Assembly: GCA_000091205.1 (NCBI GenBank)
Contig: AP006499.2
Strand: one strand, 5' to 3'
From: Cyanidioschyzon merolae
Taxonomy: Eukaryota
DNA: 64,000 nucleotides
Shown here: one piece after another, positions 4,801 through 32,843 of the stretch
How positions within the stretch are numbered: the stretch's first letter is position 1
How the letters are laid out: each line of letters starts with the position of its first letter
Program-made: the position numbers and the translations under genes
Notes under the pieces: model-generated
The model's database searches: none
What the model saw: the letters and a program-made list of their open reading frames with translations, nothing else
Told to the model about the DNA's origin: nothing

Positions 4801-5276
4801 TCTCGCACTGCCTGCTTGATCTGACTATGCGTTCGCGTCAGGTAGATGATTCTGGGAACCGACTGCAGGGGCGTTGGGCCCGGCCCGTTTTCAGAGCTGG
4901 CCGCAGGTACGAGGCCACGAAGGCTGGCCTCCGGTGCCACGACTGCACCGGCTGCACCCTGCACCCCCTGGAGCAAGCGCTCACCATAATCGTTCTTCGG
5001 GCTGTCATCGGCTAGTGATTTGGATATGCGCTGAGTGCTAGCCTGACCTTGAACTTGGGCAACGAGCAACGAGCGCCAGGCTAGTGCCGCACACAAGAGT
5101 CCGAGTGTTTTGCCCGTGCCCGTCGGAGACTCCAAGAGCGCGTTTTGTCCGGTTTGCAGCGCTTCGATCACATGTTCCATATACCGAACTTGACATGGAT
5201 ATGGCTCGAAGGGAAATTCTACGGGGACTTGGCGAATAAACAGCGTTCGGCCCGGAGCGGGGCTACTGGAAGCCAT
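1848..5276 (-). CDS. RTEL1: Rad3/XPD-family Fe-S DNA helicase, RTEL1-like
   Basis: N-terminal signature VEFPFEPYPCQVRYMEHVIEALQTGQNALLESPTGTGKTLGLLCAALAWR (Walker A). The DEAH box is IIIGDEAHN. There are four Fe-S cysteines (LCVHP, VRCTQL, RRCSFY, AMCPYF). Helicase-C motifs are CRGRTGEGIDFADDFGRTVILVGLPFP. The likely start is M (MASSSPAPGRTLF) at 5276; the ORF track extends to 5393. Confidence 0.85.
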   Translation of the reverse strand: MASSSPAPGRTLFIRQVPVEFPFEPYPCQVRYMEHVIEALQTGQNALLESPTGTGKTLGLLCAALAWRSLLVAQVQGQASTQRISKSLADDSPKNDYGERLLQGVQGAAGAVVAPEASLRGLVPAASSENGPGPTPLQSVPRIIYLTRTHSQIKQAVRELSRTAYGASVRTVVLGSRQHLCVHPVVSRLENATMQNVRCTQLTKERRCSFYLNAEQKFKEVGDDFFFIAVDSTSTLALPGRRPRDLEDLAAYGHQHAMCPYFLSREASAEAEIIFMPYNYLFDGKCRRSLGLSVEGDIIIGDEAHNLESICCDSLSFDFTAAERQRCVSAIQQLASALSSGLLNRDGREGSNTEPALHASDLHALLEIMVALEERISLVSQADAKASHARPGAENGGTVCFGQRRRIEGIDGVVLPGHAIESFLQCSSKDATLTEEAYERLLRGVEAAIRALTQLRQQFPDGTAAALDHSQAPEADAIETRDQGDPYTGLLHRQVRTTQRTSAAAWAAQVHALEQLSQVLELSRLFGKPETASTFAICVHEPAKGTAGTTHQAMNPSRLKTPSAYDGVGWPRQTPSQQRPPLSGTAAAEAASGKYVHQSAREHRSSTGYTLSFWCLWPGLALRRATSNAHAVLLTSGTLSPLESVASEMGASFPVRLQNSHVVDPATQVFAGILTKGPRDIQLNSSYANRHNREYISDLGSALVNIARVSPRGMLVFFPSYVLLARFVEIWQTGAFHHNNPLNPAHRGRQPTQATVWDRLNAVKRIFMEPRDADASRQTVDAYRQWISSGRDACLFAVCRGRTGEGIDFADDFGRTVILVGLPFPSTTDPRIILKRDYLERQALHLRDHGKTITGRLWYVQQCLRAANQAMGRVIRHAQDFGAILLCDERFRAHLRDLPRWLSAASSDADPRATHNIQVFERFGTFMSNLCGFWHSERIRQLSAAQLELATSVPPVRTPVDPFQASKDEQPRLQSMAQHAAMIGRQSQEYDQAGKTGTCDARRARSLSLSSQSSKRLRETNVAATAVSSTSTAEPGLVWKAKAERRAVSAVHKDAALARGSQMISKTIMERIRARVGDRTFSLIFQQMKRYYRLALIARQPQHSVELQQIQTELQRLVNDPSDFEQLRLLLGEGAPAMRSST

Positions 5277-5699
5277 CCAAGCGAAACGCCCCGCTCGAGG
5301 ACAGACGTATACGTCCGTCTGAGCGCTGCATGCTGAATGGCGCCAAGTCACTGCACTGCGACTGGTATCGGTACCCTGGGGCCTTGCAAGCACCCTGGTG
5401 CTGAGTTTGAAGGCTTGTTTTCGGGGCTTTTATAGCAAAGGAACATGCTATGGGAAATGTGACGATCGTCCATAGAATAGTTTGGGAGCGTTCTCTTTCA
5501 GTCGGGAAACTGCTGGCGTCTTCCCGCACCCGTGTGTGCGGTGAGTGGACCGCTGGTGGCGCTTTGTAGACGTCGCTACGCCTATGCGAGGGCGTTTCGG
5601 GGTGACTCGAGGATCGCTTCTCTTCGACGCGTTTTCCTCATGGAGCAGAGGCATGGTAATGTGTCCGTTTTTAAGGTTCAGCGCACCGTTGGAAAGACA

Positions 5700-7376
5700 T
5701 CACCAGCACCACCACCGCCTATCACACGGACGATGCCGCCCGTGTACAGTAGTGGCGAGAAACCCGCCCTGGACAAAACGTCTCCAACCGAGGTGCAGAC
5801 GTCTCCTAGTCCTTTTGGACCGGCCATCTACTACTGCTTCCAACGTTGTCTCATATAGTTCGACTTTGAGAGGTTGTCCCAAAAAATTCTCTCTTGTCGA
5901 CTCTGGAGGTCTCGTCTCCAGCACCGCACATTTCCTTGTATTGATTGCGGCGTTAAAGTCTCGGTTCACGAATTCCATACGTTTCTCCCCGTTGGTAGTT
6001 GTGCTTACTAGTGCGCCTAGTCCTCGAACTTTCGCCCTCCTTTCCGTTTGCTCCTCCGTCAGCGCTCCGTACTTTTTTATATCCTCAGGGGTCCGTTGGC
6101 ACTTTTCCATCTCCACGCTCTGAAGTGTACACCCCAGTTCATGGTGTGTATGCAATGCTCGGAACTCATCTACAGGTATTGTAACAAAACACCTCGCGCA
6201 CTCCTTGGATGTTCTTGTCGTTGGAGCTGGCGTAGTTCCTTTTTGTATCTTCCGGCGCCCTGCTCCATATGCCACTACGAGCCTCTGATTTTCATCCTCT
6301 TTCAGGGCACTCAACTCATTGAAAAAGTCCGCGAACGCCCGCTGCCTCCCACCGTACAGATTCATCCGCAAACGAGCCCGCCGGGGCTTGGTATACTCCT
6401 CCCACAGCGCATCCCAATGGGCAACACGAACTTCCATGAATTTCCGAAAAGCTTCAAAGTCGGCTCTTCGGCTGGTCACCTCGCTCAAAGCCTCCAGGTG
6501 ATCCTTCATTCCTGCGTTCCACTTCTCAGTTTTCTTCCTCGCATTCATCATTCCCGATTCTCGACAGTATCTCGCTCTCGAGAACCTCAAAAGACGCATG
6601 TCTTTCTGACGGAAGTTGCCGTCAGCACCATCTTCCGCACGCTTCGGTGCTGCGATGGTGATGATATTTGTGTTTCGGGGGTCCGCGCCAACGACAAGGT
6701 CGTTATCCTGCACTTTCTGCGTCTCAAGACTCGCCTCCTTCTTTTCTTCATGCTTCATCGCGTCAACGACAAGCACGTTATCCTGCACTTTCTGCGTCGC
6801 ATGTTCCGCCTCCTTCTCATCTTCATACTTCGTCACGCCAACGACAAGGTCGTTATCCTCCATCTCCTGCATCGCAGGATCCCCCTCTTTGTTTTCTTCA
6901 TCCTTCGTCACGGGCGCAGCCGAGGGCCGAACTGGACGATCTTTCTTCAACCGCCGATAGTGTATACACAAGGCTACTCCATCGGTTTCGATCAACCCAG
7001 TGAACCACTTTTGCTCGCTCACTCTCAGACGTTTGAAATTGAAGATATTCTTCCAGTACGTCTCCCGGTTTTCGCCGGTGAAGTCCTCCCTGCTAACATT
7101 GAACTCCGGACTGATCTCCTTCATGATGCCGTAGAGGACGCCGGAATCGATAGTCACGAAATGTGACTTGATATTGCACATTGGAACGATGTTGAAGCGC
7201 TTCCCCATTAGGAAAGCCTTCCGTCTCTCCCACTCTTCATTTTTGTCCTCACTTAGCTCCACCTCTGCCTTGCGTTCGAGTTCTCGGTCCAGAAACACAA
7301 AATAGCGCAGGATGAGGCGATAGTATCTTTCCTTATCTTTTTTATCTCTGATATCTTGTCTGCTGGATTCGCCCAC
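5700..7376 (-). CDS. TnpB/Fanzor-like RNA-guided-endonuclease-family protein (RuvC-like nuclease with Zn-finger); probably the 3' exon/major part of a longer gene
   Basis: RuvC-I-like motif [17 protein letters not shown] Cys/His cluster follows: CARCF...HTHHELGC...EKCQ. The RuvC-III hallmark is [15 protein letters not shown] (D-x-NAA-x-N). The N-terminus is K/R-rich ([13 protein letters not shown]-like). Upstream ORFs on the same strand in alternating frames (7253-7633, 7618-7812, 7870-8181) suggest extra exons or frameshifts. Confidence 0.6.
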
Positions 7377-8200
7377 CCGAGTACCGCACGGTGCTCTTGT
7401 ATAACCGCACGGATTACAGAAGCTTCATTCGTGCTGCCGTTTGATATCCTCATGTCCACAAATTCGACCTCATCTTCATATCTGCGATCGTTCGTGATGC
7501 CATTGATAATCGCCCATATCCCCTTGCAAGAGATACCCCCGTACAGCGCAAACACGGCGCGTATCATGAAACGTTCGAGGTTCATTGTCAAAAGGTTCTT
7601 CAGGTTCGTGATATACTTCATCGCTCCGTACATGTAAATACCCCGGTCACCCTTGTATCGAGTACCCTCGAACCCGTAAAAGGGATGTCGTTCGTGGAGC
7701 GCGTGAACCCGCCCATTTTACCCCGCGTTTCCTCTGCACCAAACACCAGGTGCCGAATAAAGGTCTTGTCAAAGAACTCGTCTGGAATCTCGACTGTTTC
7801 CACGTGCGCCACGTCTTCTTACATCTCGCGCACCAAATTCATCAGTCTTGACGACACCTTTATAATACTCTAGGAGTACAGATCGACATGCTGTCTGATG
7901 TCGTCTTGCAACTTTTGCTCATCCGAATCCTCGAGGTGTCCATGAGGGCGGGTTACCACTACCGTCCCGTCATAGTCTCGTGTTTCGTGCAGCTTCTGAC
8001 GCCGGGCCTCCCCTTTTGCTTCCGTGTCTTTTCCTGTTCCTCTGCACTTGGCAGTGTTTCTCTTTTTTTTCTGGCAGCCGGCGACACTGCGCCTCCAGGA
8101 TCCTTCATTTCTATGTCCATAACTTTCCTTTGCTATGTTTTTGAAAAAGAACGCATTTTGAACGCTTCCGTTATAAACCACGTAAAATCACTTGAATACA
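5830..8200 (-). mobile_element. putative Fanzor/TnpB-carrying transposable element (approximate bounds)
   Basis: The TnpB-like ORF lies in an AT-richer island (about 7400-8450). DNA and protein homology to the second copy (53125-53950) ends abruptly near 5830-5865, which would be the putative right end. The left bound is uncertain. Confidence 0.35.
6690..6925 (-). repeat. in-frame coding tandem repeat (~78-81 bp x3) inside the Fanzor-like ORF
   Basis: The DNA unit caacgacaag[g/c][t/a]cgttatcct... recurs at ~6690, 6773 and 6846. It encodes ...[11 protein letters not shown]... three times. The last copy is the RuvC-I strand itself. Confidence 0.7.
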
Positions 8201-8605
8201 CTCATGTGAAGATTGAAACACAATTGAATTTAAAGATTATATTATGCTACGACTTGAACGCAAATACAACTTGTGCGTTAGAGCAATACGCTATTGATAA
8301 GGATCGCGTTTCCCTTCAACGGCGAGGTACGCGTCGTATCTCATACCTGCCTGATCTGAAAGTGGGCTTATCGACTGCGCTATTGAAAAAAAGAACAGAG
8401 ACTAGCCCCTATATAGCAACGAAATAACATTTTCTTCTCCCTTCAACGATAAACGTTAAAAGGCGGGAAAGGTTTCCATTTTGTCGAAACTTTACCTTCT
8501 TGGCGGAAGATCTCGCGAGCCGGACGAGTATGCCTGGCGGGTGCTTCATGCTCCCGCACTAGCGGGTGCCGTAGTGAGATCTTGGCAGCTCGTCCGAAAC
8601 CCAAT

Positions 8606-8888
8606 TTTTATTGGAATAGGACTAGAAGTGGACAGCTCTCATCCAAGTGTCGCCTTGGTCGCAGTGATCGCTTATAGTGACCCTTTGCGCGGCCGCACGC
8701 AGAAGCTCTGTCTGCGATAATTGCTGGCTCCCAGATTGATAACGAAACCTGATCCCGTGTCGCGCAAACCACGCCTCTAGTCGACGCCCCCAGTGGTATG
8801 GCAAAACCTTTCTGTCCCCGTGATGCATCCACACAAGCGGTTTAGGCGCTGTAGCGGGTGCTCAGCGCCGGCACTCGGCACACAATAG
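8606..8888 (+). repeat. ~280-bp dispersed non-coding element, copy 1 (candidate ncRNA gene or TE terminus)
   Basis: About 75% identical over its full length to 42343-42618 in the same orientation. Shared blocks are tttatt..aggactagaagtgg, tcatcca.gtgtcg, tggtcgcag, gctggctcccaga.tgataa, cgacgccc..cag.ggt.tggca and gcgggt.ctca. No protein-level conservation was seen in any frame. Confidence 0.65.
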
Positions 8889-9346
8889 ATCGTAAAAAAA
8901 CTACCCGTACATCCGAGAGACATTATAAATAATGGAACATGGGAGTAGGGTTCTCCAGCATGATGAACGCTCTCTCGATTACCAGTACCCATCCATCCCG
9001 CGATTTTAGATCCACGGTCAACGAAAACGTCTTGTGAGCGGAGAGCGGAGCGCCGCGCGGTACGCGCTCCACCGCGCGCCCGTTGATGATCGCGAGCGCG
9101 CCGGTGCGCCGCGCACTGCACCAACGACCGCACAATGCTCACGTCCGCGTTGGATTGTCTGGGTGTTTGTTTTCTTTGCAGTGACGAGGAGGCATACGGG
9201 TTTGCGCTTACAAGTCTAGCGCTCACCGCAAGCACTGGTGGCTGCGTGAGGGCGCAGACGAAATCGGGTGGTTTTTTACCGACAGAAGCGCATTTGATCG
9301 GGGCTGGAACGCTGCGCTGCTTGCGTGTGCTCGTGCCGCTCGTACG

Positions 9347-12989: not shown

Positions 12990-13799
12990 CTAGTCGGGGC
13001 ACATGAGACTCTCCCGGGTGTCTGTATTGGTGAGCGTGTTCATTCCCTTTGCGTCTGAACGCGAGCAGAGCTTCATCTGCCAGGTGGGTTCCAGCAGCGC
13101 ATCTGTCCAGTCGGTATTCTCAATATTCGCTATGGTCAGGACACTCTCGGTCCAGTAGGTGGAACGCAAGACAGCATTTTGGAAGTTGCTGCCTCGCAAA
13201 ACGGTTTGTTCAAGGGACGCTCCGATAAGCTGAGCATTCTCGAAGTTCGCTTCCGTGAGATCCGCTTTGAAAAATCGAGCCCCAGATAGGTCTGACCCAG
13301 AAAAGTTTGTCTTGCGGCAAGTCGATCCTGAAAAGTCCTTCTGCGACAGTTTCCGATGCGAAAGGTCCTGTTCCGAGAGCTGTTGCCCCGCGTAGTCCAA
13401 GCCGCCCCCTGATATGGCCACAGCGTCCTTCGGGAGACCGCACATCAGACACAGGCCGACGAAGAGCGCAGCCAAGGCTCTCTTCTGACTCTCGCCCGAC
13501 TCTGGCTGGGGCCCAGGACCTACGACTCCTCGCAACAACGCTGTTGCCTGTGCACGGCTGCGCACAGCGAAAGCGCAAGTCTTTCGTTGTTTTTCACATA
13601 CAAGTGCCTGCTGCTTTCCAAAACAATACCTGCAACTCGGCGTTGGCTTCTTCGTCTGCGAACTTGGTGAGCAAGCGTTCACAAAACCTGTTTGTAGGGG
13701 TATCGTTGCCAGCTGTCGAGCAGCCGTTTCTGACCAGGAAGTGTAAGTGGCCCTATTGAGTTCCCTAACTGTCCCAGACATGGTGCTGCAGTTAGACAT
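12990..13799 (-). CDS. pentapeptide-repeat protein (thylakoid-lumen TL15/TL17-like) with a bipartite-looking presequence
   Basis: Consecutive A(D/N)LxX-type pentapeptides: KTNFSGSDLSGARFFKADLTEANFENAQLIGASLEQTVLRGSNFQNAVLRSTYWTESVLTIANIENTDWTDALL. The N-terminus has an S/R/A-rich segment, then the hydrophobic stretch ALAALFVGLCLMCGL, then AVA|ISGG (AxA-like cleavage site). Confidence 0.7.
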   Translation of the reverse strand: MSNCSTMSGTVRELNRATYTSWSETAARQLATIPLQTGFVNACSPSSQTKKPTPSCRYCFGKQQALVCEKQRKTCAFAVRSRAQATALLRGVVGPGPQPESGESQKRALAALFVGLCLMCGLPKDAVAISGGGLDYAGQQLSEQDLSHRKLSQKDFSGSTCRKTNFSGSDLSGARFFKADLTEANFENAQLIGASLEQTVLRGSNFQNAVLRSTYWTESVLTIANIENTDWTDALLEPTWQMKLCSRSDAKGMNTLTNTDTRESLMCPD

Positions 13800-14539
13800 G
13801 CATGAGTGTTTTGCTCGAACCTAAACTCTATCAGGCTTTGAGGTACCAACTTTAAGCGCCGAAGTGCTCGTCCAGCGGCACCTGACGCGTTGTCCCAGTG
13901 CCAAGCCAACGAGTTCTCCATTCGAGATGCAGCTGCGCGATGCACTCCAAGCACAGAGGTGTTCGGGATGAGGCTAGTGGAAGCACTTCACACCGTATCG
14001 TCGTGCAAGTTTGGTAGCTTTCATCTCGGGAACAATTTCAATGTCGCTTTTTGGGAATTTGCATCTTAATGAGTCGGGTAGGTGGTTTTGGTGTCCGTAG
14101 CAACATCAGAGACAGCAAAGCTTATGCGAAAAGCTGCTGTGCGTGTAGGCTACGATTCAATGCAGGAGGTGTTCGAGGCTGCATTTGTTTATCGGGTAGT
14201 CGGATACCATTGATGTATGTGAGAATAAAATGAAACGGGTCCACTTATGTGATATGGGTGCACCTGCTGAAGTTTGGGTGGCTTCCCACAGTCATCAACA
14301 CCAGCCTCGGAGTGCCTTCTCTACGACTGCTTCCTCGTTCCTCTCTGTTATCTCGCGCTTTAAAAACGCCGGACTCTCTGTTCTATCCAGTTCCGTTGTC
14401 AGTAGTTGAACGATGTTGATAGCGGTTTCAAGTCACGATTTCGCGGCTTCCAGCTGTTGTCGCGGTATTTGACGCATAGGCGGACCTCGAGATCTAACGC
14501 TCGCATCCCATTTTCATCTTCTTTGAATACATTTCCATT

Positions 14540-15150
14540 GAGGTCCTCGTAGCGGTGACACTTGTCAGGTTTTCCTGTATACCCACAGTAGCTCCTTATG
14601 CTTCGAGGCCGCCCTGTGGCGTATGAAGCCCTGCGTCATCGCTCGGTACTTAACCTTGAAGGGTACCGAAGACTCTCCTCGACGTCATCCTGCGTTACCG
14701 CGCCCGATAGCGTACAATACGATCAGGGGCTTCCTCTGGGCGAGCCCTTCAGCTATCACACTGTCTGCTTCACGAGCAAGCGAACGCTGTTCGATTCAAC
14801 GGAGGATTTCTGGAACGCGATGCTCTCCTTGATGAAACGAGAACCAGAAGGAACATCCAGGCTGGGGAACAGTTCGAGAAACGTCGAGCCGTCTAGACTC
14901 GCTTGCTGCGAAGCGACGATGCACGCCCCATTAGAAGAGAGCCTCGGGATGGTTCGAGTTCGAGTCCAAGACACTTGGATCGAAACCGAAGAGACGAAAG
15001 CCCCCCAAAGCATATCCCGCGACATGTATCGCGCTGCCTTCGGATTGCGTTCCTTCGATGGCCACAACGAAAGCAGGATATACCTTTCGAGCGAAATCGA
15101 TTGCTTGACGTGAAAAGTTCTGGGATGCATCAGCACGAGCGTATGTGCAA
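14540..15150 (+). repeat. ~600-bp dispersed repeat, copy A (inverted partner at 21180-21790)
   Basis: ccttgatgaaacgagaaccagaaggaacatccaggctgg aligns with the reverse complement of 21430-21470 (ccttgatgaaacgagtaccggaaggcaaatccgagctgg). Homology is traceable from gtagcggtgacacttg to ctttcgagcgaaatcgattgcttgacgtgaaaag. Long ORFs are open on both strands but no domain was recognised. Confidence 0.65.
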
Positions 15151-15229
15151 ATCGTGAAGAGACGGCGTGGAGTCTCTCTCTGTATATGCAGCGTCGCGCA
15201 GCGCTGCGCCCATGCTTTTTCTTAAAACC

Positions 15230-15390
15230 GAAAGATCGAAAACTTGAAGCAATCTGTATGTAAGGAAAGGAGAACCGTGGATGCTTTTTTCTACGGACTG
15301 GATAATCATATCGGTTCTGGTACAAACTTCTATTCGAGGGTGTCTCGAAACATCGTGATTCCGGTGACTTGGCGAATTCCAGCGGCAAAA
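15230..15390 (+). repeat. ~190-bp dispersed element family, copy A
   Basis: It shares ordered blocks with 32465-32645 and 46570-46755: gaaagat(c/t)gaaaacttgaag, ggaaagg/gagaa..cgtggat(g/a)c, ..ggat(a/t)..gg, and ..gaattccagcggcaa / gcattccagcggcagcac / gaattctagcggcaac. Confidence 0.6.
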
Positions 15391-16141
15391 TGTCGAAGAA
15401 TCCACTACATAACGACGACCGGGAACCCAAAAACACCATATGAACCCTTAGTCCCTCATTGCTACACCATAACGATCATGGCAGTGGATCTAAAATGGTT
15501 CATAAATGAATGGAAAGCTACGAACCGAGCGCGGAGTTCAATGTTCCGATTTTTATCTGACACTGGAGTATCGAGATGCGGAAGGTTTTGCTTAACAACA
15601 CAGTACGCGCTGTCTTGTAATTTCAACGTGCTTGGGCATGCCTCTTTGACGCATTCGAGCACCAACGAAAGACGCATTTCATTCCTTCTTGATGAAGAAT
15701 ATCGTACCGAAACGATCTGTATCAAAATGACCGATAACGTATCCTGAGGCCGTGTCCAGTTGCGAACGGGCGCTGTCATGGCCCCGAGCCTGTGCACTTC
15801 GTGCTGCTGCGAATACGCAGCTTCTAGAGCACGCCGTGCCTATGCCCGAAGCACCATTCAAAGACGCTCTATTGAGTGGACCCAAGTCCGTGTGAAGGAC
15901 CTGCCGATGATCAGGGAACGCGCCTGACTGGTAGCACAAGGGCTCCTGGCACACGGCTTGGCTGTTGCGGTTTGGCGAGCTTTTCCCAGTTCGAACAGTG
16001 CGTCTGTGAATAGGTCGCTCAAGCGTCGATCACGTTGAATTTCTGTTGCTGACCCCAAACGAAAGCTTTGTAAAGGAGAGGAGCGCGAAAGGTGCCGCTC
16101 GGGAGCTTGTCTTGCGAACAAACACGAGAACCTTTCCAAAC

Positions 16142-19100
16142 ATGTTCATCTTTCACCCGAACGTCGTTCGCGCAGCGCTAGCTGCGAAACTCACCCTGGG
16201 CTTCTTTCTAACTAGCCTGCTGGTCACCGTCAATGATTTCCGGGAGCAACTATCGTGCTGGGCTCCTCTTTTGTACACGATTCTTGTGGGTCCTCTGAGC
16301 GAGTTCAGCTACACGGGTGCCATTCAACGCACAGTATCGGGGTTGTTGTACGGTTCGCTTCTGGGTACGGCTTGTGCTGCTGTGGTGTTTTTCTTGGCAC
16401 GCTATTATGTATGGCTGCGCGTTATCTGCATCTTTGTTATTTTCATACCTATAAGTATACTTCGTCTGAGCGATCAGCATGCGCTGTTCTCAATCTTCAC
16501 CGCAGTCGCGCTTGGTCTCGTGCTCAATGCTGCCCTGGTGTCGCAAGCACTCGAATCCGACACGTCTACAGCGAGCAACATTGGGCGCTCTCTCGCGGAG
16601 ACAACTTCCTCGGTGCAGTCGCTTATGCGACAGTTTTGCATTTCTGCCTCAGTGGCATATGTTGTTGGCGTTTTTATTGGCGTCGTTGTGTTACCAGTGC
16701 CGGCTTCAGCTGCTTTGCGGGATAGACTTGAACGCGTCCTCCAGGAGCTGGGTAAGCAAGCGAGCGCGCTAGCTAGCGAGCTCTTTGGATTGGTAGCACA
16801 GGCCGAGGGCGCATGGCGAGAGATCCAGCGGCATAGCAAGAAAACATCTGGAGAAGCCGCCTCCACAGAAGAGTTGCAGGATTCTGACGGCATGTTATCG
16901 GCAACGACGACGACGATGGCAACCAGCGCGCAGTCGCCGCTGTCCGGCCTGAGGGGGAATGGGAAGCGCGTTGAACAATGTTTCAGCGTTGACTTTACTT
17001 TTTTAGACGAAGAAGACTATGCGGCACTTCACGAGGAGGGCGCTCTCTTCCTACAAGAGCAGGTTTGGGAACTGCAGTCACTTGTCGGATTCGCTTATCG
17101 AGAATGGACCTTTCCGGAAGTTACATGCGATCTTTCGATCACGGCATGGGCACGGATGATTCTTGCTGTTCGAGAGATCGTCTCGCGTCTTGCGGGTGTT
17201 GAATGCATCCTCAGCGAAAGACGCCGACGATCTGGGTACAGTATGGGTCTGGCGCTGGATCAGCTCTTTCGGCAGTCACTCGTTGATGTGATGCGCATGT
17301 GGGCCATCATCTCTGCGAGCTGTTATCAGTTATCGGGAATGCTTGCAGACTCACATTGGCGATGGTATCGTTGGACCGCGCAACGGCACCTGGGGAAGCG
17401 CTCCCGCCATCGAGCATTCTCTGTGTTGAAAACGCTGCTCGAAACGAAGAGCCTTATGCGTATTCGACAAAGCGCGCTCGCTAGTGGGCTTGTCGGCTAC
17501 GAAAAGTACTGGCAGCAAATGATGATGCTTTACCAGCAACAGCAGCAACACGATCATTGCAATGACCGTAATGCGTATAAGCTTGACCGCAACGGATCGC
17601 GCTGCACTGCGCTATTTGCTGAAGACGTTAGCGCTGCCTGGTTCAGCGCCATCATGATGCATCGCATTTTGGATGCAGTGCTAGAAGCGTATCACGCTGC
17701 AGAGGCGTTTGCGCCTCCACCAGAGACTAGTGCACTGCCTCTGTCCGGTCGGCTCCGTTCCGGTGCTGATCGTGTTCGAACACTCTTGTTCAACCTCGTG
17801 AGCGAGTTTTTCGCATTGCCCATCCAGATCGGAACGGATGTTCTACAGCTTGGCCTTCGATTGCGTGTTTTGCGCTGGAACGATGTTCGGGAAATGCTGC
17901 GCACCCATCACTGGCAGGTTGTTTTCTTCTGGAAATTTTTCCTGCTTTCAGCGACAACGCTCTCGGTGGTTACGAGCATTCCAAACAAAACAGCGCTGCG
18001 GAGCGACTGGAACATTATTTGGCTGTACTACTCGGTAATAATCACAGCGAGACCCACAACGGAATCCGCAGTAAGCATTGGTCTCATGCGCGTGAGCGGG
18101 ACCATCATCGGGGCTGCTTTGGGCTTTCTGGTCATGTTTCGACCGGTCATTGGGACCAACGCCTACGCCGTCACCGCTCTAAGCGTTTTTGTCCTCTACA
18201 TTCTCTTCTACCTGGCGCATTTGAATCGCCACAAGTGGTTGCAGTACGCATCGCGAGTCGGAGTTCTAACGTACACGCTGGTGGTGATGTGCCAGTACCA
18301 AGGCGTCAATTACGTCGCCCAATGGCAGTACGCCTTGAGTCGCTGCGTCATGACCTGTGCGGGTGTGCTGCTCGCCGTGCTTGTCGTTGCCGCCTTGTCT
18401 CCACGAATGGCAGTGCGTGAATCGCGCCAAACCCTGGGACAGGTCTTCCGTGCCGCGGCGGAGGCAGCACGCTCCTTTCATGCCGTTTACGTGACCCGCG
18501 ATACTTCGACACAGTTACCCGCTAGATTAGACCCTGCGTTTCTACTGGAACACTATTCGAACTTTAGTTCACTGATGCGTTCACCATCATTAGTGACGCT
18601 GTTGAGAGAACACGACGCTGCGGATGAAACACGACAGCGTCGTGCTGCGCGAGCGACTACCGCCAATGCAGCAGCAGACGCAGAAGCTACGTCCACGCAG
18701 GCACTGAATTCTTTCAGTGACCGGGCAGCGTCGCTATTACTCCAAAGGATAACAACAGATCTTATGGTGGCACGTGCCGCTGTCCGTCCAGCGTTCGGTG
18801 GTAACACACAGTTCACAATGTGGCGCTCAGGATTATTCAGTGCGCCGCAATACATCTTGCGCGGTATAGACAGTTCGTGGCTGCTGTTGCTGCGTTTGGA
18901 AGTTATTGAGGGTGTTCTCGAGCGTCCTCCGATTTATACGAACCGCTACACGGGAGCAGCGATACGTTTATTTATTCAACCGCTCGAGTCGGAGTGGCGC
19001 GCTCTTTTCGATGCACTGCACGCGCTCAGCGAAGCAATTCATGCGTACCTATCAGCGTTTTCGCTTTGGCATGATCTCGGGCTCGAGCGGGCATGCCGAT

Positions 19101-20410
19101 GCGGTTCCTGTTGGCGTCACGACGCAGAAGAGGTGCATGTTGCCTCGACAGCACGTGCAGATGCGCTTTCGGACAGGTCGTTGCCGGCGTCGCAGCAGAC
19201 AACGGAGCTGGACGCAAAGGATGTTCAGTATGGAGGCGAGCGTCTGCGACGTGCAATTGTGGATGCGAGGGGCCATGAGGAGTGGCTGGATGCACACGTC
19301 GCCGATGCTTTGCTGCTCTTTCGGAAGCGACGTGCACGCCTCTGGTCGAGCTTGACAAAGCGTCGCAATCGAGTGCGACGAGTGGCGCTCTCCCGCTCCC
19401 TGAATAAACAGGAACGCCAGGTAGTGGATTTCGTTGGAGCCTTATTTCTTGCGCAGGAGGAAGCTGAGCGTATGAACTTCCCCGGCATGGTGCCTGAGCA
19501 GGATTCAGATCCTGCTATATCCAAGCCAGCAGATGTTGCTTCGGCAATAGCCCGGTTAGATTCAGCGACGGGTAGAATGCGTGCAGTGGAATTGCCTCCG
19601 GGCGAGCCGTCTCCATCGAGCACCACTGCGCGATTGGAGGCAGGCTCGCAGTTGCCAGGCCGACAGTTGCTTGAAATGGAGGACACGGGTACTGCGTCGA
19701 AAATCCAATCGCTTGCGGAATCGACGAGGCGATCAGAAGCGCATACATCTGGAGGCTATGCACCGCAGCAACGCGACGAGCGACAACGACACGACAGTGC
19801 CGTGTCGCCCATGGAGGAAATCGCACCACGGTATAACAGCTCCGCAACAGCAGTAGCTGCTGCTGCTGTTGCTGTTGCAGATGATGATGATGATGCACTC
19901 GACCAAACGACGGGGATCGTAGAGCGCGTGCCTCGTCACGTACCGGGCGGAGAGCATGAAGCGTTGCCGCTCTACCCATCCACGCATTCGGAAATGAAAC
20001 TGCGCATATCAAGCCTGGCGGGTTCGCGGGCAGCTGCCACCGCGGACGCTGGCCTTGGTGTTGCTGCCGAGCATCCAACTGATACCTCGCCCAACGCAAT
20101 CGAACAAGCAGCACAGCCGGTAAGGGAGAAGGGCGGCCGCCGTCGCCATCGGCGCGTCCACCATCGCATACCCCCTGATGAGGAGGAGTCGATCGTGCGG
20201 GAGCTTTCACAGCTGGCGACGTACACAGAGGCGCATCCGCTTTTCGCGTCCTCTATTCAGAAACCAATCCACACCTCCCATGCGATCGGATTGCCGATAG
20301 ATGATTTTGTGCATTTCTCGAGTTACCTTTTCGCTTTACGCGAGACACTGAATGTGTTCGACTTTGCTGCGCGCATGATCGCTCGCCAGCCTGCGATGTC
20401 GTCGCCCTGA
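16142..20410 (+). CDS. large integral membrane protein with two 5-6-TM domains, FUSC/ALMT(ArAE)-like, plus a long disordered C-terminal tail
   Basis: TM cluster 1 spans residues ~35-230 (GFFLTSLLVTVNDF..., YVWLRVICIFVIFIPISIL...). TM cluster 2 (...VVFFWKFFLLSATTLSVV...RVSGTIIGAALGFLVMF...VFVLYILFYLAHL...) resembles the duplicated FUSC fold. The tail is Ala/Asp-rich (AAAAVAVADDDDDA). The ORF track starts at 16046; M at 16142 (MFIFHPNVV) is the likely start. Confidence 0.45.
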   Translation: MFIFHPNVVRAALAAKLTLGFFLTSLLVTVNDFREQLSCWAPLLYTILVGPLSEFSYTGAIQRTVSGLLYGSLLGTACAAVVFFLARYYVWLRVICIFVIFIPISILRLSDQHALFSIFTAVALGLVLNAALVSQALESDTSTASNIGRSLAETTSSVQSLMRQFCISASVAYVVGVFIGVVVLPVPASAALRDRLERVLQELGKQASALASELFGLVAQAEGAWREIQRHSKKTSGEAASTEELQDSDGMLSATTTTMATSAQSPLSGLRGNGKRVEQCFSVDFTFLDEEDYAALHEEGALFLQEQVWELQSLVGFAYREWTFPEVTCDLSITAWARMILAVREIVSRLAGVECILSERRRRSGYSMGLALDQLFRQSLVDVMRMWAIISASCYQLSGMLADSHWRWYRWTAQRHLGKRSRHRAFSVLKTLLETKSLMRIRQSALASGLVGYEKYWQQMMMLYQQQQQHDHCNDRNAYKLDRNGSRCTALFAEDVSAAWFSAIMMHRILDAVLEAYHAAEAFAPPPETSALPLSGRLRSGADRVRTLLFNLVSEFFALPIQIGTDVLQLGLRLRVLRWNDVREMLRTHHWQVVFFWKFFLLSATTLSVVTSIPNKTALRSDWNIIWLYYSVIITARPTTESAVSIGLMRVSGTIIGAALGFLVMFRPVIGTNAYAVTALSVFVLYILFYLAHLNRHKWLQYASRVGVLTYTLVVMCQYQGVNYVAQWQYALSRCVMTCAGVLLAVLVVAALSPRMAVRESRQTLGQVFRAAAEAARSFHAVYVTRDTSTQLPARLDPAFLLEHYSNFSSLMRSPSLVTLLREHDAADETRQRRAARATTANAAADAEATSTQALNSFSDRAASLLLQRITTDLMVARAAVRPAFGGNTQFTMWRSGLFSAPQYILRGIDSSWLLLLRLEVIEGVLERPPIYTNRYTGAAIRLFIQPLESEWRALFDALHALSEAIHAYLSAFSLWHDLGLERACRCGSCWRHDAEEVHVASTARADALSDRSLPASQQTTELDAKDVQYGGERLRRAIVDARGHEEWLDAHVADALLLFRKRRARLWSSLTKRRNRVRRVALSRSLNKQERQVVDFVGALFLAQEEAERMNFPGMVPEQDSDPAISKPADVASAIARLDSATGRMRAVELPPGEPSPSSTTARLEAGSQLPGRQLLEMEDTGTASKIQSLAESTRRSEAHTSGGYAPQQRDERQRHDSAVSPMEEIAPRYNSSATAVAAAAVAVADDDDDALDQTTGIVERVPRHVPGGEHEALPLYPSTHSEMKLRISSLAGSRAAATADAGLGVAAEHPTDTSPNAIEQAAQPVREKGGRRRHRRVHHRIPPDEEESIVRELSQLATYTEAHPLFASSIQKPIHTSHAIGLPIDDFVHFSSYLFALRETLNVFDFAARMIARQPAMSSP

Positions 20411-21179
20411 TCGCCTCTCTGCTTTGCTATGTCAGGTACCCGTGACCTGTTGAGGTCAGCGGTTTGCATCAGATCCTGAGCCGGCGATTGTTTGGTAGGT
20501 TTCTCGTCGTCGTTGGCGCTGCCGCACAATGGGCGCGGCTCTCGAAGCGGCGCGTGCGCACTCACCGCTCATCAGGTATTGCTTCGGGTGCCATAGAGGG
20601 CGCAGCAAATGCGCAGAAAACGCCCAGCTTGCGCTTGGTACCCGCCTGTTTGCCGGGTCGATTGCATCCCGACCCTCGATGGGAACACCGGTCCGAGAGT
20701 AGACCCGTCTGGTGTTATCGGTGGAGGTGCGTTTCTCTCGCTACACTAGTATGGAACTAAAATGGAATACCGAATGACTGGCTCTCTTCCTGCTAGTTCA
20801 AATTTTTACGAACATGGGTAGATATACAGAAAGTCCAAGTCACGCAGTAATGGCTTACGAATTCCTAAGCGGGTGTAGGAATCTCACTCGTGGTTCCGGA
20901 GAATCTGCTTTGACATTTTTGCCCATGGAATTCTTCGCGTCACCGGAATCCATGTGATTTGCAATGTCCTCGAGCACGCGTTCGTAAAATAACCAATAGT
21001 ATGACCCAAATCATATGTGCAAGCGTGCACGCTACTCAATTCCTTACGTAGAGCACGCTCAAATCCCATATGCTTCAATGCTGCGAGTGCTCCATCTTAT
21101 TGCAACGCGGGAGTTCAGCGATTCACGTTGCCAGATTGACGAGGAAGAGTACTCAATGACGTCCCCGGACGATACGATT

Positions 21180-21790
21180 ATAGGCTCACGCTGAAAGATT
21201 CATGAACATTTCAGATCGAGGAGTCGATTGCTCTCGAAAGGCGAATCCTCATCTGTTTGACGCCATCGATGATACGGTACTCTAAAGCAACATGCTACCT
21301 GTAATGGTATAGGTTCCCAAGCACTTGCACATCTTTTGCATGCACGAAACCGGATACTGGACACGGATTTAAGGCATCGCTGGAATCGCATCCACTGGAG
21401 AGCGCGTTACCGCTTTGCCGGATGCGAGCGTAGAGGCATCGAAATTGCTCGATTTGATTTCCAGCTCGGATTTGCCTTCCGGTACTCGTTTCATCAAGGC
21501 CAAGATCGCTTTCCGCAAAACCTCTATCGAAGGACTTGCGTGCTCTTGCGTGTGCAGCGTACAGAGTACTCACGTTGTGCATCGCCCAGAACAAGTCTAT
21601 GATCGTAGGATACGTCACCGGGTAAAGAAATAGAGACGGACTTTGAAGCGATCCTTTTGTGCGCGTCAAGAGCAAGTGCCGGGCGACGAAACAAGGGTTC
21701 ACACCTCCAGCAAGGCGCACAGAGGCCGAGGCACAGTGAACGTACGAGAACACGTGTCTGTTTTCAAGCGTCACCGTACCGAAGGTCGTA
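21180..21790 (-). repeat. ~600-bp dispersed repeat, copy B (inverted relative to copy A)
   Basis: See copy A. The reverse complement of 21181-21240 (ctttcgagagcaatcgactcctcgatctgaaatgttcatgaatc...) aligns with 15082-15140. Confidence 0.65.
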
Positions 21791-22173
21791 TCGAGGCTCC
21801 AAATAAAAATTGATGCAAATATCTGGTGAAGCGTAGATTGCAACTACCGTCCGTGCATTCAATCCGTAGAAATCAACCGGGAGGTGCGAAATCCGGATTT
21901 TGACGCTGCCAACGACGTTTTTCGAGTGCGAACAACAGATGTAGAGGGAAAGGAGACACGGATACGTCCCAAGTCGGGAGTAAACGATTTGGAAAGGACG
22001 CAGCCCCCGAACAATCGACCAAATTCTGGTATCCATGACATAACGAAGAGATCATAGCTTAAGCGTCAACGCTCGTGTTCGGTAAGCAGTCCTTTCCGAT
22101 TTGATGCCGACTCGGGTAAAGGCGTCACAAAATCCGAGCATCTGCGTCTGCGGAGCAATCGGCCCAAGATCAG

Positions 22174-22331: not shown

Positions 22332-23861
22332 ATGAAAGACATCCGCAACCCATGCGGTTTGCTCACCGTCGGACGTGATCCTGCCCCGGGCATATCCACA
22401 ATAACCTCGTTCCTCAAGCCACCGCGCTCCTGTTTTAAGTCAAGTGCGGCACCCTGGCACAAAAACATGGAGAGAGGCGCCTTCGCATTCACGTCCTCGT
22501 CTCCAATGAACCCGGGTGGTCGATTACTTTCATCTGGCTTGGGATCAGAATCACACGCAACGGAACCTGCTGTTCACTACGACGATAGTTTGCGACTCTC
22601 CGCAGTTGGTCTCGACGCTGTGTATCACGTGCGCACTACAAGCGCGTCTGCTGGCCAAAGTGAAAACTCAGCGGACTCGAGATTCATAGGGCCAGCGTCC
22701 GCCATACTACGAGCACGAAGGACGGGAGTCTCTGCCTGGAATAACGGCTCGTCCGTGTACGAAAAGTCTTCGTTCACCCAATCCGGTTGGCTGGGTCGGA
22801 CGGCGCCCTCGGAGGAGAGCGCCGAGCCGGACTCGTCCTCGGTGTCGTCGCTTGCTGTAGCGAACACGGTACGCGCTTTGGTGCACCCGCTGTACGTCTC
22901 GGCGCTGTCGGGACTGCGTTGGTTGGGCACTTTCCGCGGCGTACAAGCGTTCCGCTCGCGCTTGCTTTCCTATAATATGCTGAACAGTGATGAGGCTGTT
23001 GAGCGGGCGGTTACAACCTGCTGTGCGCAAGCTGGTTGCGAGCCGGTCACGCCCACGCTGAAATCAACAACCTCTGTGGATCGCGAGCTGCGCGCACTCA
23101 TCAACAAACTGTTTGTGCGCCACCTGTCTAACGACGGGCGCTGGGTAGACTATCAAGCACTAATGCTGGACAAGGACTTTGTCAATTTTGTGAGTCTGAC
23201 GCGTGGCCTCCGAGACCTGGACGTTCTCGAGATGAGCCGAGCGCGCCGCCTCGCGTTTTTCCTCAATATATATAATGCGCTCCTTATCCATGCGATAACG
23301 ATCCTGGGCCGACCACGTAGCTTCGTTGCACGCTTCCGATTCTTCCAGACTGCTTCGTACTGTATAGGCGGTCATTTGTACAGCTTGAATGATATCGAGA
23401 ATGGCGTTTTACGAGGGAATCGGGCACCTCCGTATCCTTTTGCTTCGAAACCTTTCGGCGAGCTTGGCTCTGGCGACATTAGAGCACAAGCGATGATCAC
23501 TGGCGGCGATCCGCGCATCCATTTTGGCCTCAATTGTGGGGCGCGCTCGTGTCCGCCCATTCGGGCTTACGACGAGTCTAACGTGGACCAGGCGCTGGAG
23601 GCTGCCACCGCGAACTTTATACGGGACAACGTGAAAATAGTCTCCGAGAATCATGTTGAACTCAGTCGAATTTTCTTATGGTACGCATCAGACTTTGGAT
23701 CAAACGTGATCTGGTGGATTCTCAAACACTGGCCCCTGAAAACCGAAGAGGATATGCAGAACTACCGACGAATTGTACAATGGGTAGAGAGCGGCCAACT
23801 CCGTATCACGTATTCAAAGTATGATTGGGCTTTGAACGAGGTCACCGAGAATGAGCGCTGA
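22332..23861 (+). CDS. DUF547 domain-containing protein
   Basis: LAFFLNIYNALLIHAI ... GGHLYSLNDIENGVLRGN ... DPRIHFGLNCGARSCPPIRAY ... SRIFLWYASDFG match the DUF547 consensus. The N-terminal ~250 aa are S-rich and low-complexity, so the start is uncertain. Confidence 0.7.
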   Translation: MKDIRNPCGLLTVGRDPAPGISTITSFLKPPRSCFKSSAAPWHKNMERGAFAFTSSSPMNPGGRLLSSGLGSESHATEPAVHYDDSLRLSAVGLDAVYHVRTTSASAGQSENSADSRFIGPASAILRARRTGVSAWNNGSSVYEKSSFTQSGWLGRTAPSEESAEPDSSSVSSLAVANTVRALVHPLYVSALSGLRWLGTFRGVQAFRSRLLSYNMLNSDEAVERAVTTCCAQAGCEPVTPTLKSTTSVDRELRALINKLFVRHLSNDGRWVDYQALMLDKDFVNFVSLTRGLRDLDVLEMSRARRLAFFLNIYNALLIHAITILGRPRSFVARFRFFQTASYCIGGHLYSLNDIENGVLRGNRAPPYPFASKPFGELGSGDIRAQAMITGGDPRIHFGLNCGARSCPPIRAYDESNVDQALEAATANFIRDNVKIVSENHVELSRIFLWYASDFGSNVIWWILKHWPLKTEEDMQNYRRIVQWVESGQLRITYSKYDWALNEVTENER

Positions 23862-26804: not shown

Positions 26805-26981
26805 CGGGTTTCCGCGGACGCACGCCGCTGGGACGCCATCCTAGACGGAAGCATTCTAGGTACCGCTGGCCCCAGCACGACCCGGGTGTGTGCGTAGGTG
26901 CATTCGACGTGTGTCGTACGAGGGTACAGAGCTTCAAGTATTTTGCTCGTTGAAGGATCTTTGTTCAGGGTACACAAAACG

Positions 26982-27518
26982 ATGCAAAGCATTGCCTGCT
27001 CTGGTACAGTGCAGTCACTGAGACGCCTGGTCTCCGTCGGTACGCTGGGGTGCGCACAGGCTTCATCACGACGCTGGCTCGCTAGCGGCAAGGACCTTCG
27101 CTTCGGCTCAGAGGCAAGAAACCTGATGCTTCGCGGTGTAGATCTGTTGGCAGACGCCGTCCAGACGACCCTGGGTCCCAAGGGAAGGAACGTGGTCATC
27201 GACATGAGCTACGGATCCCCGAAGATCACCAAGGACGGTGTCACCGTTGCACGAAACATCGAGTTCCGCGACAAGCACCTGAATTTGGGCGCACAGCTCG
27301 TGCGGGCGGTGGCCTCGGCAACGAATGATGCAGCAGGTGACGGAACTACGACGGCGACTGTACTGACACGAGCTATTTTCACGGAAGGTGTGAAAGCGGT
27401 AGCAGCGGGCCTAAATCCTATGGATCTCAAACGTGGCATTGATCTGGCCGTAGAGAAGGTGCTCGAAAAGCTCAAGGAATATTCGAAGGAGATCGGCGGC
27501 AAGAATGAAATCAAACAA
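26982..27518 (+). CDS. HSP60: mitochondrial chaperonin HSP60/CPN60, exon 1
   Basis: [18 protein letters not shown]... presequence, then [51 protein letters not shown]...[16 protein letters not shown]. The exon ends ...GGKNEIKQ and is followed by GTAAGT. Confidence 0.9.
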
Positions 27519-27783
27519 GTAAGTTTACGATGATGCAGCGGGCAACGACTCGACACGAACGATAGGATGGCCGGGGGGCGGCAGCCGTGCTGGGCCCCGC
27601 CGCCTCCCTCCGATGAAATCCTGAAGCGGCTCACTTGACCGCTCATGCAGTTTTGTCATAGTTACGCTGATCGTTCACGTCGACGCGCTGTCTACATGTG
27701 GGATACAAGGCCTTGTAGGGCCTGTACAGAGCAATCGAATCAGAACAAGCAAACTAACCGTGCGTGGGAGAAACGCCTTGTAG
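27519..27783 (+). other. HSP60: spliceosomal intron of HSP60 (GTAAGT ... TAG), 265 nt
   Basis: The donor caa|gtaagt is at 27519 and the acceptor ccttgtag|gtc ends at 27783. Splicing joins ...EIKQ to [20 protein letters not shown], restoring the canonical HSP60 sequence. Confidence 0.85.
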
Positions 27784-29007
27784 GTCGCAACAATCAGTGC
27801 AAATGGTGATGAGAAGATTGGCGAACTCATTGCAGAGGCTATGGACAAGGTTGGTCGCGAAGGAACCATTACGGTTGCGGACGGCAAGACCCTTACCGAT
27901 GAACTGGAAGTCGTCGAAGGCATGCGTTTTGATCGTGGCTACATCTCGCCGTACTTCATCACGGATGCCAAAAGTCAGAAATGCGAACTCGAGGATGTTC
28001 TGATTTTAACAGCGGAAAAGAAGGTGAGCAGCTTACAGTCCATTCTGCCGCTGCTGGAGCAGGTCGTCAAGGCACGACGTCCACTGCTCATCATTGCGGA
28101 AGACGTGGACTCCGAGGCGCTCGCTACCCTCGTTGTGAACAAGCTGCGCGGTGGCATTCAGGTCTGTGCAGTGAAGGCGCCAGGTTTTGGTGATAATCGC
28201 AAAGCGAACCTCATGGACATCGCTACGCTCACCGGTGGTGAAATGGTCTCCGATGAGCTCGATGTCAAGTTAGAGGACATGACCATTCATCGCCTCGGCA
28301 CCGCGAAGAAAGTCACTGTTAGCAAGGATGATACCATCATTCTTGACGGCGGCGGCGACAAGATGCAGGTCCAGAATCGCTGTGAGCAGATCCGTGCGGC
28401 AATCGAGAATGCGACCTCCGAGTATGAGAAAGAGAAACTTCAAGAGCGTTTAGCGAAACTTACCGGTGGCGTCGCCGTCATCAAGGTAGGTGGCGCTAGC
28501 GAAGTCGAGGTCGCTGAAAAGAAGGACCGCATTACGGACGCGCTGAATGCAACGCGTGCTGCCGTCGAGGAAGGTATCGTAGCTGGTGGCGGCACTGCGC
28601 TCCTGCGGGCAGGCAAAGATGCACTCGAGAACCTCCAAGGAAAAACCTTTGACCAGAACGTAGGTATCGATATTGTCCGCAAGGCGTTGCGAGTGCCCTG
28701 TATGGCGATCGCTCAAAACGCTGGCCATGAAGGCTCTGTCGTCGTCGAGAAAGTCCTCACGAGTTCCGATAAGAACCTCGGCTTCGACGCCGCTACCGGC
28801 AAGTATTGTGACCTCATCGCATCGGGTATCATTGATCCAACCAAGGTCGTGCGCACGGCGCTAGAGCGAGCGAGCAGTGTGGCAGGGCTCATGACCACCA
28901 CCGAGTGCATGGTTGTGGAACTCCCCAAGGAGGAAGCGAAAGCGTTTGGAGGTGCTGGCGGCGGCGGTGGCGGCATGGGTGGTATGGACAATATGGATAT
29001 GTATTGA
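27784..29007 (+). CDS. HSP60: mitochondrial chaperonin HSP60/CPN60, exon 2
   Basis: VATISANGD...GREGTITV...[12 protein letters not shown]...[13 protein letters not shown]...[13 protein letters not shown]...GIIDPTKV... with the C-terminal GGM repeat [19 protein letters not shown]. Confidence 0.9.
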
Positions 29008-30960: not shown

Positions 30961-31610
30961 GTCGTCTGGTCACCAGCACTGTGTTTGTTGGTATGCTCAT
31001 ACAAGCGACGTTCCATACGAAGCCCATTTGGCTACCAGAAATGAATACAACTGAAACATGGAACGCGCAGTCGTAGCTAGACGCAAGTGGAGCGTCAAGA
31101 ACAAGTTCTTTCAATCGTAGTAGTGAACGCGGGTGCTTTGGTTTGTGCGCATATGTTAGGCTGTTTTTGTTTTCGTGGCGGAAGCGTTTTCGGGAGGAAG
31201 CAGCTTGCTCCATCGACAACATCGAGTCGAAAGTCACGATGAATGAAAGACCGCAGGTGCGGTCATCAGGATGACGTCTCAGCGTCCTTCGCGCACGCCT
31301 CCGAGAACAATGTGTCTGGCATAGCATCGCAGCACTGAAGCAGTTTGATGGGCACCCATGTAAGAAGGTAATGGAACGGATCCATTTCTCTAACTCGGAC
31401 GTGCACGCTGAAATTTGTGTCTCTTCCAAGGATCAGCAGCACCAGACGATGCGGACTTTTTTTTCTGCGACTGCATCGTTTTCTACTCCCATATCTCGAG
31501 ATGAGAAAACGCCGGTTATTCCTTTCGCTAACAGCTGCGCTGTCAGCAATGGAAGCGTGTTGACGGCAGTGTTCAAGTCCCAACTTTGCTACGATCGGCT
31601 GTTTTCCATG

Positions 31611-31893
31611 TCATTCCCGCACAGGTACAAGTTGCGATCTACGCTGTGCTCGATACACTCATCTGTTTCGTATACAGGCTCGTCATTCCCGCACAGGTAC
31701 AAGTTGCGATCTACGCTGTACTCGATACACTCATCTGTTTCGTATACAGGCTCGTCATTCCCGCACAGGTACAAGTTGCGATCTACGCTGTACTCGATAC
31801 ACTCATCTGTTTCGTATACAGGCTCGTCATTCCCGCACAGGTACAAGTTGCGATCTACGCTGTACTCGATACACTCATCTGTTTCGTATACAG
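31611..31893. repeat. tandem minisatellite, 72-bp unit x ~3.9 (near-identical)
   Basis: The unit tcattcccgcacaggtacaagttgcgatctacgctgt(g/a)ctcgatacactcatctgtttcgtatacaggctcg recurs at 31611, 31683, 31755 and 31827. Confidence 0.9.
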
Positions 31894-32645: not shown

Positions 32646-32843
32646 CGGAGCCACCCCGAAACGACTCTCGATCATCCTGAAACAATTTCGAGTCCCTTAA
32701 CCTTCATTGCTGCACTTCGGATACTTTTGTTGTCCAACAAAAGAGTTCGGAAACAAACCATCGAAATGCAAGCACAGAACGAGCAGTCCAGGATTCCAGT
32801 TTATGCGGACTCTGGTACACCAGACGACGAACAGACCCAAACG

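Follow-up and report, generated by a model that had tools for sequence, protein, structure and literature searches.

Transposons of the mariner type that carry a gene for Fanzor1 have been described as PUl-1, PUl-4 and PGv-1 (Bao & Jurka 2013, PMC3627910), and the same study listed Fanzor1 in white spot syndrome virus (WSSV) and in CMe-1A, a repeat of the red alga Cyanidioschyzon merolae with a 3169-bp consensus and ~150 copies, which is without terminal inverted repeats (TIRs) and encodes the Fanzor1 protein CMe-1. In this genome, Nozaki et al. 2007 (PMC1955436) counted 26 retroelements and 8 DNA elements, together with 253 interspersed repeats of ~3.2 kb that contain a truncated open reading frame (ORF) resembling WSV486 of WSSV; CMe-1A and these 253 repeats are very likely the same thing. 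Here we analyze a 64,000-nucleotide stretch of C. merolae (GCA_000091205.1, contig AP006499.2; “the window”), in which two regions of inverted similarity, A and B, lie on either side of CMQ267C, a gene encoding a FUSC-like membrane protein. We show that A and B belong to a family of repeats in which part of a mariner-type transposase is joined to part of a Fanzor1 protein, and they are very probably old, dead copies of a non-autonomous class II transposon of this mariner–Fanzor kind, placed beside CMQ267C by chance. To our knowledge, no mariner–Fanzor element is known from red algae, and our literature search found no description of a mariner–Fanzor chimera family in the C. merolae genome. This alga, in use as the minimal model for photosynthetic eukaryotes, has been portrayed as nearly transposon-free, with transposons making up 0.7% of its genome.

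A first-pass annotation of the window had described A and B as an inverted repeat pair, ~600 bp long and ~75% identical. The two 32-mers it gave as an example are both present, at 14827-14858 on the + strand and at 21468-21499 on the - strand. Aligning 14540-15150 with 21180-21790 using MAFFT gave 61.4% identity over 601 positions, where shuffled controls averaged 42.7% and did not exceed 48.9%, so that the inverted similarity is real, though weaker than claimed. The best nearly ungapped BLAST segment between A and B is 69% identical over 199 bp, with three shorter collinear inverted segments besides, and a seed-and-extend repeat finder run on the window did not detect the similarity. A single-sequence nhmmer search aligned 14222-15576 to 22108-20736 with E=6.6e-92, and the units defined by their TIRs are ~1.37 kb long, at 14212-15568 and 20744-22118, i.e., more than twice the length first proposed. 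They are inverted relative to one another but are not a pair, since the window contains four copies; a profile made from the copies identified C and D, located at 31353-32817 and 45261-46927.

The family extends well beyond the window. We scanned public metagenome contigs with a 21-nt block, AAASATYGAAAACTTGAAGMA, that is exact in three of the four window copies (15231-15251 in A, 32467-32487 in C and 46572-46592 in D), and obtained 66 loci, ~40 of which carry the element. After dereplication these comprise orthologues of A to D and at least 13 further distinct loci, all on C. merolae-like contigs. The metagenome copies are mostly full length (1.35-1.43 kb), are 97-100% identical within orthologous sets, and adjoin unrelated genes in either orientation, i.e., the mariner–Fanzor chimera family is dispersed.

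To define the ends of the element, 11 distinct copies were aligned together with flanks of 300 bp; column conservation rises from ~0.50 to ~0.72 at one boundary and drops back at the other, demonstrating sharp ends. Alignment of left ends with reverse-complemented right ends (22 ends in all) identified a TIR of ~25 nt, CACCCGTGTCAGAATAAAATGGAAC, which is also present in the consensus and which both ends of each window copy match with four to eight mismatches. Seed matching within single copies found neither TIRs nor target-site duplications, and the TIRs are visible only in the 11-copy alignment. The first-pass annotation had suggested two fragments of one transposable element family; the family assignment holds, but A and B are complete non-autonomous elements with TIRs of their own. 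A terminal direct repeat was considered as a reading of the end similarity and was rejected, the structure being a TIR with a subterminal hairpin at one end. The 3′ 226 nt of the consensus fold better than all 200 shuffled versions (z=-3.8). The dinucleotide TA adjoins 7 of 10 transposase-side ends and about 2-3 of 11 Fanzor-side ends and, among the window copies, flanks A on one side, B arguably on both and D on one side, with C being ambiguous, which is suggestive, but no proof, of a TA target-site duplication.

The identity of the element became apparent only from the family consensus. Single copies indeed have no recognizable domain, as first reported: Pfam searches with the ten longest open frames in A to D returned noise only (a PIN_9 match came from a tandem array), and a word-indexed protein search with a 171-aa frame of copy A had no match other than the query. 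This does not hold for the 11-copy consensus. With 11-14 stops per frame, it nevertheless matches, on its minus strand, DDE_3 (E=5e-10; 39.8 bits, cut-off 28.6), HTH_Tnp_Tc3_2 (E=7e-6), HTH_33, HTH_32 and Cas12f1-like_TNB (PF07282, the TnpB/OrfB zinc ribbon; E=3.3e-6), and the DDE_3 and TNB matches exceed the curated Pfam cut-offs. A stitched 412-aa product gave the same picture (DDE_3 E=1.6e-9, TNB E=4.6e-6, with a weak helix-turn-helix [HTH] match). The consensus is the N-terminal two-thirds of an IS630/Tc1-mariner transposase, of which ~235 aa are kept, fused to the C-terminal third of a Fanzor1/TnpB protein, of which ~215 aa are kept. Building a family consensus can therefore recover the identity of debris that single-copy searches are unable to name.

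Both halves carry the motifs expected of them. The transposase part contains two HTH domains, a first Asp motif, FVAIDETAF, and a second, FIMDNIAFHKS; ~8 codons after MDNIAFHKS and in another frame, the Fanzor part follows with ...EQRALACAADRVLAEGIAQNKPMIVGYGTGRGNGGGYRGEPSVPVKSMYRAMKQAF...HLTTVKCHRC...FRLCMKC...NRDLNAAINIL. This part has the C-terminal Fanzor/TnpB signature [TS][TS]-x-x-C4 zinc finger-x(5,50)-RD, as defined by Bao & Jurka 2013 (PMC3627910). Database searches identified intact DDE_3 (PF13358) transposases (P0129, P0130 and P0135) that are 32-40% identical to the first 55-58% of the query, and Fanzor1-like proteins of 418-712 aa (P0131, P0133, P0134 and P0137) that are 42-44% identical to its last third and share PVIIGYGTGRGNGGG...EHxTTxKCHRC...NRDxNAAINIL. 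These relatives also match the window copies directly (tblastn, E=1.5e-8 to 1.4e-19). The catalytic triad of the transposase is incomplete, as the DDE_3 match ends at position 100-117 of the 146 positions of the profile and the region of the third catalytic residue (YSPxxNPIE) is deleted, from which it follows that the relic was never autonomous. The second catalytic Asp is, in addition, mutated in copies A and B.

Copy A (14212-15568; 1357 bp) lies between a pentapeptide-repeat gene (12990-13799, -) and CMQ267C, with its relic gene on the - strand; the 11-copy nhmmer model aligns from 13 to 1405 at 14214-15581 with E=0, and the copy is 76% identical to the consensus (71% for copy B). Its Fanzor-proximal (3′) TIR is at 14212-14236 (+), with 7 of 25 positions mismatched to CACCCGTGTCAGAATAAAATGGAAC, and is followed inward by its own inverted copy, i.e., the subterminal hairpin seen in both the end alignment and the consensus fold. 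The transposase-proximal (5′) TIR is at 15544-15568 (-), with a TA next to it at 15569-15570. A relic of the DDE_3 core is located at 14804-14977 (-; tblastn with P0130 residues 172-229, E=3.7e-4), and the C-terminal relic of Fanzor1, on the RuvC-II side, at 14613-14882 (-; tblastn with P0133 and P0137), where 14849-14613 is 46% identical to residues 297-377 of P0133 (E=1e-10; E=2.8e-10 with P0137). The opposite strand of the 32-mer at 14827-14858 reads DVPSGSRFIKE and aligns to DFPSGTRFIMDN of the consensus, the region of the second catalytic Asp, which in copy A is mutated to E. Copies of the A type contain nothing before ~residue 300 of P0133, and the upstream part with the RuvC-I Asp is absent.

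Copy B (20744-22118; 1375 bp) is inverted relative to A and lies between CMQ267C and a DUF547 gene (22332-23861), with its relic gene on the + strand (nhmmer model 5-1405 at 22124-20731, E=0) and TIRs matching the consensus at 20744-20768 and 22094-22118. Its HTH and DDE_3 transposase relic occupies 20926-21540 (+; tblastn with P0130 residues 38-236, E=1.5e-8, and with P0129, E=2e-5), and is immediately abutted by the C-terminal Fanzor1 relic at 21539-21700 (+; P0133 residues 320-373, 43% identity, E=5e-5). Copy C, between the EndoV and Dopey genes and with its relic gene on the - strand, is matched by nhmmer in three segments (model 7-336, 264-729 and 888-1402) and by tblastn with P0133 (E=2e-5); part of its middle is missing. 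It contains a tandem array at 31610-31897, in which four 72-bp units, 99% identical, are duplicated element sequence (model 264-336). The orthologues of copy C in the metagenome are 1365-1366 bp long, ~145 bp (about two units) shorter, showing that the length of the array is polymorphic in the population.

Copy D (45261-46927; 1667 bp; relic gene on the - strand; nhmmer model 7-1406, E=3.5e-271) is located between the TyrRS gene and CMQ277C and has a longer and different middle. It contains the N-terminal HTH part of the transposase and then Fanzor from ~residue 117, with stops and frameshifts: 46532-45595 matches P0133 residues 117-398 (tblastn, E=1.4e-19), and no match to the DDE_3 core was found. 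Since copy D keeps Fanzor residues 117-398, its deletion breakpoints differ from those of the A type. All four copies are intergenic and clustered within 33 kb, with A, C and D in the same orientation and B inverted, and pairwise identity is ~50-58% for all pairs, i.e., the relationship among them is star-like. Copies of this family occupy four of the ~16 intergenic spacers of the window, and a good part of the ~2-kb intergenic spacers of C. merolae can thus be old transposon debris.

The copies are dead and non-autonomous, and are under no selection on coding. Stops occur in every frame of every copy, and identity to the consensus is ~72%. The mismatches that separate copies lack periodicity at lag 3 (-0.03 to +0.04); the positive control, a real gene pair of similar divergence, gave +0.25 at lags 3 and 6. 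When copies were compared by six-frame tblastn, all frames scored alike and contained stops, and no coding frame stood out. Rfam and tRNA scans of the window returned nothing.

Comparison with described systems places the family among ordinary objects, i.e., it is a dead DNA transposon, with a link to virus-like contigs. Like PUl-1, PUl-4 and PGv-1, it combines a mariner-type DDE transposase and a Fanzor1 in one element, often has TA at its ends, has short TIRs (~25 nt, compared with 24-33 bp in those elements), and is linked to large double-stranded DNA viruses of algae; it differs from them in surviving as a dead 1.4-kb deletion chimera and in having a red alga as its host. Paired HTH domains, a DE(T) first Asp motif (FVAIDETAF), a second motif of the form MDNxxxHKS, TIRs and a TA-rich boundary are shared with IS630/Tc1-mariner transposases, from which the family is distinguished by its missing YSPxxNPIE region. 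As in Ds of the Ac/Ds system and in deleted P elements, the element has retained both ends but not its middle, several independent breakpoints are seen (the A and D types), and amplification would depend on a transposase supplied in trans; unlike in those systems, the material searched yielded no autonomous partner.

The link to viruses comes from metagenome contigs of 55% GC that carry the family's closest intact Fanzor relatives, Fanzor1-like genes of 551-712 aa (L072, Ga0399894_004485; L073, Ga0306901_1000170; and L075-L077). Neighboring genes on these contigs encode RNA ligase, 2OG-Fe(II) oxygenase, ATG8, UvrD helicase and RPB2, along with many ORFans and Peptidase_S74 proteins of up to 2625 aa, a gene content that looks like that of Nucleocytoviricota. 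Giant viruses have been reported with cyanidiophyte mats (PMC11003980). The element and three virus-like lineages have in common a 3′ end, TACGCC...GTTCCATTTTT...GGTGTA, downstream of the Fanzor stop, the closing stem of which shows one compensatory change (ACGCCC/GGGTGT versus ACGCCT/AGGTGT); judged from sequence and predicted structure, this shared end would fit a relic omega-RNA region. We raise, as a tentative idea that we consider rather less probable than its opposite, that the family represents a second, undescribed Fanzor1 lineage of C. merolae, which arrived on a mariner-type transposon from a cyanidiophyte giant virus. If so, the 1.4-kb algal relics would record an old transfer from virus to host, and the relatives on the virus contigs would be live RNA-guided nucleases, probably of viruses of hot-spring algae. 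The intact Fanzor1-like genes on these contigs are candidates for live RNA-guided nucleases, and they bear on how Fanzors spread and on possible sources of heat-tolerant Fanzors.

We propose that the ancestor was a Tc1/mariner-IS630-type element with two genes between its ~25-nt TIRs, one for a DDE_3 transposase with N-terminal HTH domains and the other a captured Fanzor1, i.e., a TnpB-like RNA-guided nuclease. An internal deletion would have removed the end of the transposase, from just past the second catalytic Asp, and the first ~300 codons of Fanzor, leaving a 1.4-kb chimera that retained both ends and could be moved by a transposase supplied in trans. This chimera would have spread to many intergenic sites of C. 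merolae, probably at TA dinucleotides, with the copy D type arising independently as a second deletion variant, and all copies would then have decayed without coding selection. With A inserted upstream of CMQ267C and B, in the opposite orientation, downstream of it, the gene would have come to appear bracketed by an inverted repeat. Several observations weigh against this proposal. We found no full-length element with both genes intact, so that the progenitor is reconstructed and not observed; TA occurs at only about 2-3 of 11 Fanzor-side ends, an asymmetry with the transposase side; a PDB sequence search with the stitched consensus gave no significant match; and the virus-like contigs, where searched, contain neither the 5′ TIR nor an adjacent transposase and share the 3′ end only. 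Finally, the 21-nt block is exact in at least 10 further loci (L006-L071), and hence in at least 13 overall, in elements that are ~72% identical to the consensus, and simple neutral decay does not account for this.

This last observation is also a point in favor of the explanation that ranks next to our own in probability, namely that the copies were exapted as non-coding functional elements, either regulatory modules or non-coding RNAs, and were kept for that function. The folding of the 3′ 226 nt agrees with such a role, as does the reported transcription of CMe-1A-type repeats in C. merolae (PMC1955436), and the exact block may mark exaptation of some copies. However, copies found independently of the block motif (B, L069 at 20-1119 and L036 at 3-549) have diverged within it, the remainder of the element diverges evenly in a neutral-looking manner, no Rfam match was obtained, and the copies contain indels, a tandem duplication and a middle that has been lost or replaced. 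We therefore regard exaptation as an improbable account of the family.

Still less probable is that the repeats are a multigene family of the host, i.e., fast-evolving genes or locally duplicated pseudogenes that were never mobile. Each copy does fill a “gene slot” between its neighbors, the four copies lie close together, open frames in the copies are unusually long (up to 277 codons), and the locus numbers appear to skip three in the interval from CMQ267C to CMQ277C that holds B, C and D; our search of the literature and its supplements found nothing on the locus IDs CMQ266-276. The stops in all frames of all copies and of the consensus, and the lack of codon periodicity in divergence where the positive control was positive, are at odds with such a family, as are the sharp ends with inverted repeats, the distribution of copies over many different contigs, and domains that are those of a transposase and of a transposon-borne nuclease.

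The remaining explanation, which the first-pass annotation had offered, concerns the gene between A and B. CMQ267C (16142-20410, +) encodes a FUSC_2/ALMT-like membrane protein (Pfam FUSC_2, E=1e-12) that is 100% identical to BAM82150 / XP_005538186 of C. merolae 10D, and with eight further proteins of the window matching chromosome 17 proteins exactly, the window is from chromosome 17 of this strain. The gene order helicase - MFS - pentapeptide - FUSC-like - DUF547 - TCP1 - EndoV - Dopey is kept in Cyanidiococcus yangmingshanensis and in a third cyanidiophyte lineage, with protein identity at the orthologous loci of 62% and 54%, respectively. In both, the membrane-protein gene is present and the repeat is undetectable, and the two spacers beside the gene are ~1.06 kb in Cyanidiococcus, compared with 2.34 and 1.92 kb in the window. 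Both A and B are present on a metagenome contig that matches the window at 99.4% identity. That A and B are the TIRs, or flanking IS-like copies, of a large composite transposon that brought in the FUSC-like gene is thus extremely unlikely: their opposite orientation, the single gene between them and its distances from them (573 bp upstream and 333 bp downstream, only broadly alike and not the roughly equal distances described) would suit such an element, but the gene and both its neighbors stand in the same order in two lineages where no repeat is detected, the Cyanidiococcus spacers are shorter by about one element length, each copy has both TIRs of its own, unrelated genes adjoin both C and D and at least 13 copies outside the window, and at their ends A and B are no more alike than either is to other copies. 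The conserved synteny shows that A and B did not mobilize CMQ267C, which is a bystander, the bracketing being a coincidence of two independent insertions. This is the outcome for which the first-pass annotation had named the absence of target-site duplications and the single scattering of copies elsewhere as signs, and both were found as far as they could be tested.

The chimera family is also distinct from the Fanzor1 repeat already described in this genome. Both it and CMe-1A are Fanzor1-bearing dispersed repeats of C. merolae with a C-terminal NRDxNAAINI motif, but CMe-1A is ~3.2 kb long and lacks TIRs and a transposase, whereas the chimera family is 1.4 kb long with TIRs and is older, at 72% identity to its consensus compared with ~80%. 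Identity with CMe-1A, i.e., with the WSV486-like repeats, was rejected, as tblastn with CMe-1 gave no match to the family consensus at E<0.01 but did detect a separate CMe-1A copy in the window, at 5772-8120. The red-algal repertoire gains a mariner–Fanzor chimera distinct from CMe-1A. The family may correspond to some of the eight elements with a “bacterial-type transposase” reported by Nozaki et al.

The window itself contains CMe-1A sequence. A nearly full-length but frameshifted copy at 5772-8120 (-), which extends to ~9049, is 76% identical at the amino-acid level to residues 1-734 of the CMe-1 consensus. It coincides with a stretch of low GC content and strong GC skew at 6-9 kb, as well as with a 558-aa ORF at 5700-7376, and very likely belongs to the WSV486-like repeats that Nozaki et al. 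counted. A solo 3′ fragment of CMe-1A at 53051-53403 (-; CMe-1 residues 612-730, 53% identity), upstream of a 5′-nucleotidase gene, accounts for a 360-bp repeat pair at 5780-6143 and 53047-53406. A further repeat pair of 680 bp, at 8364-9049 and 42102-42776 (both +; ~67% identical, nhmmer E=3e-69), has one member at the 5′ end of the CMe-1A copy and the other solo just upstream of TyrRS. Likened by description only, it fits TE-N2_CMe, a 635-bp element identical to the 5′ end of CMe-1A (Bao & Jurka). At several metagenome loci, namely L036 (4423-4737 beside 4836-6192), L033, L050, L071, L069 and L070, no more than a few hundred bases separate the chimera element from CMe-1A fragments or from another, incomplete copy of itself, which suggests nested or clustered insertions in some spacers. 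Tandem arrays are present at 1465-1825 (~119-bp units, 99% identity) and, inside the CMe-1A copy, at 6684-6912 (~75-bp units, 81% identity).

Among the neighboring genes, the TCP-1/cpn60 gene is split into two open frames, 26898-27533 and 27841-29007 (+), and is called as two genes in the metagenome orthologues, with one 582-aa product over 2029 bp in Cyanidiococcus; it probably belongs to the small set of C. merolae genes that contain introns.

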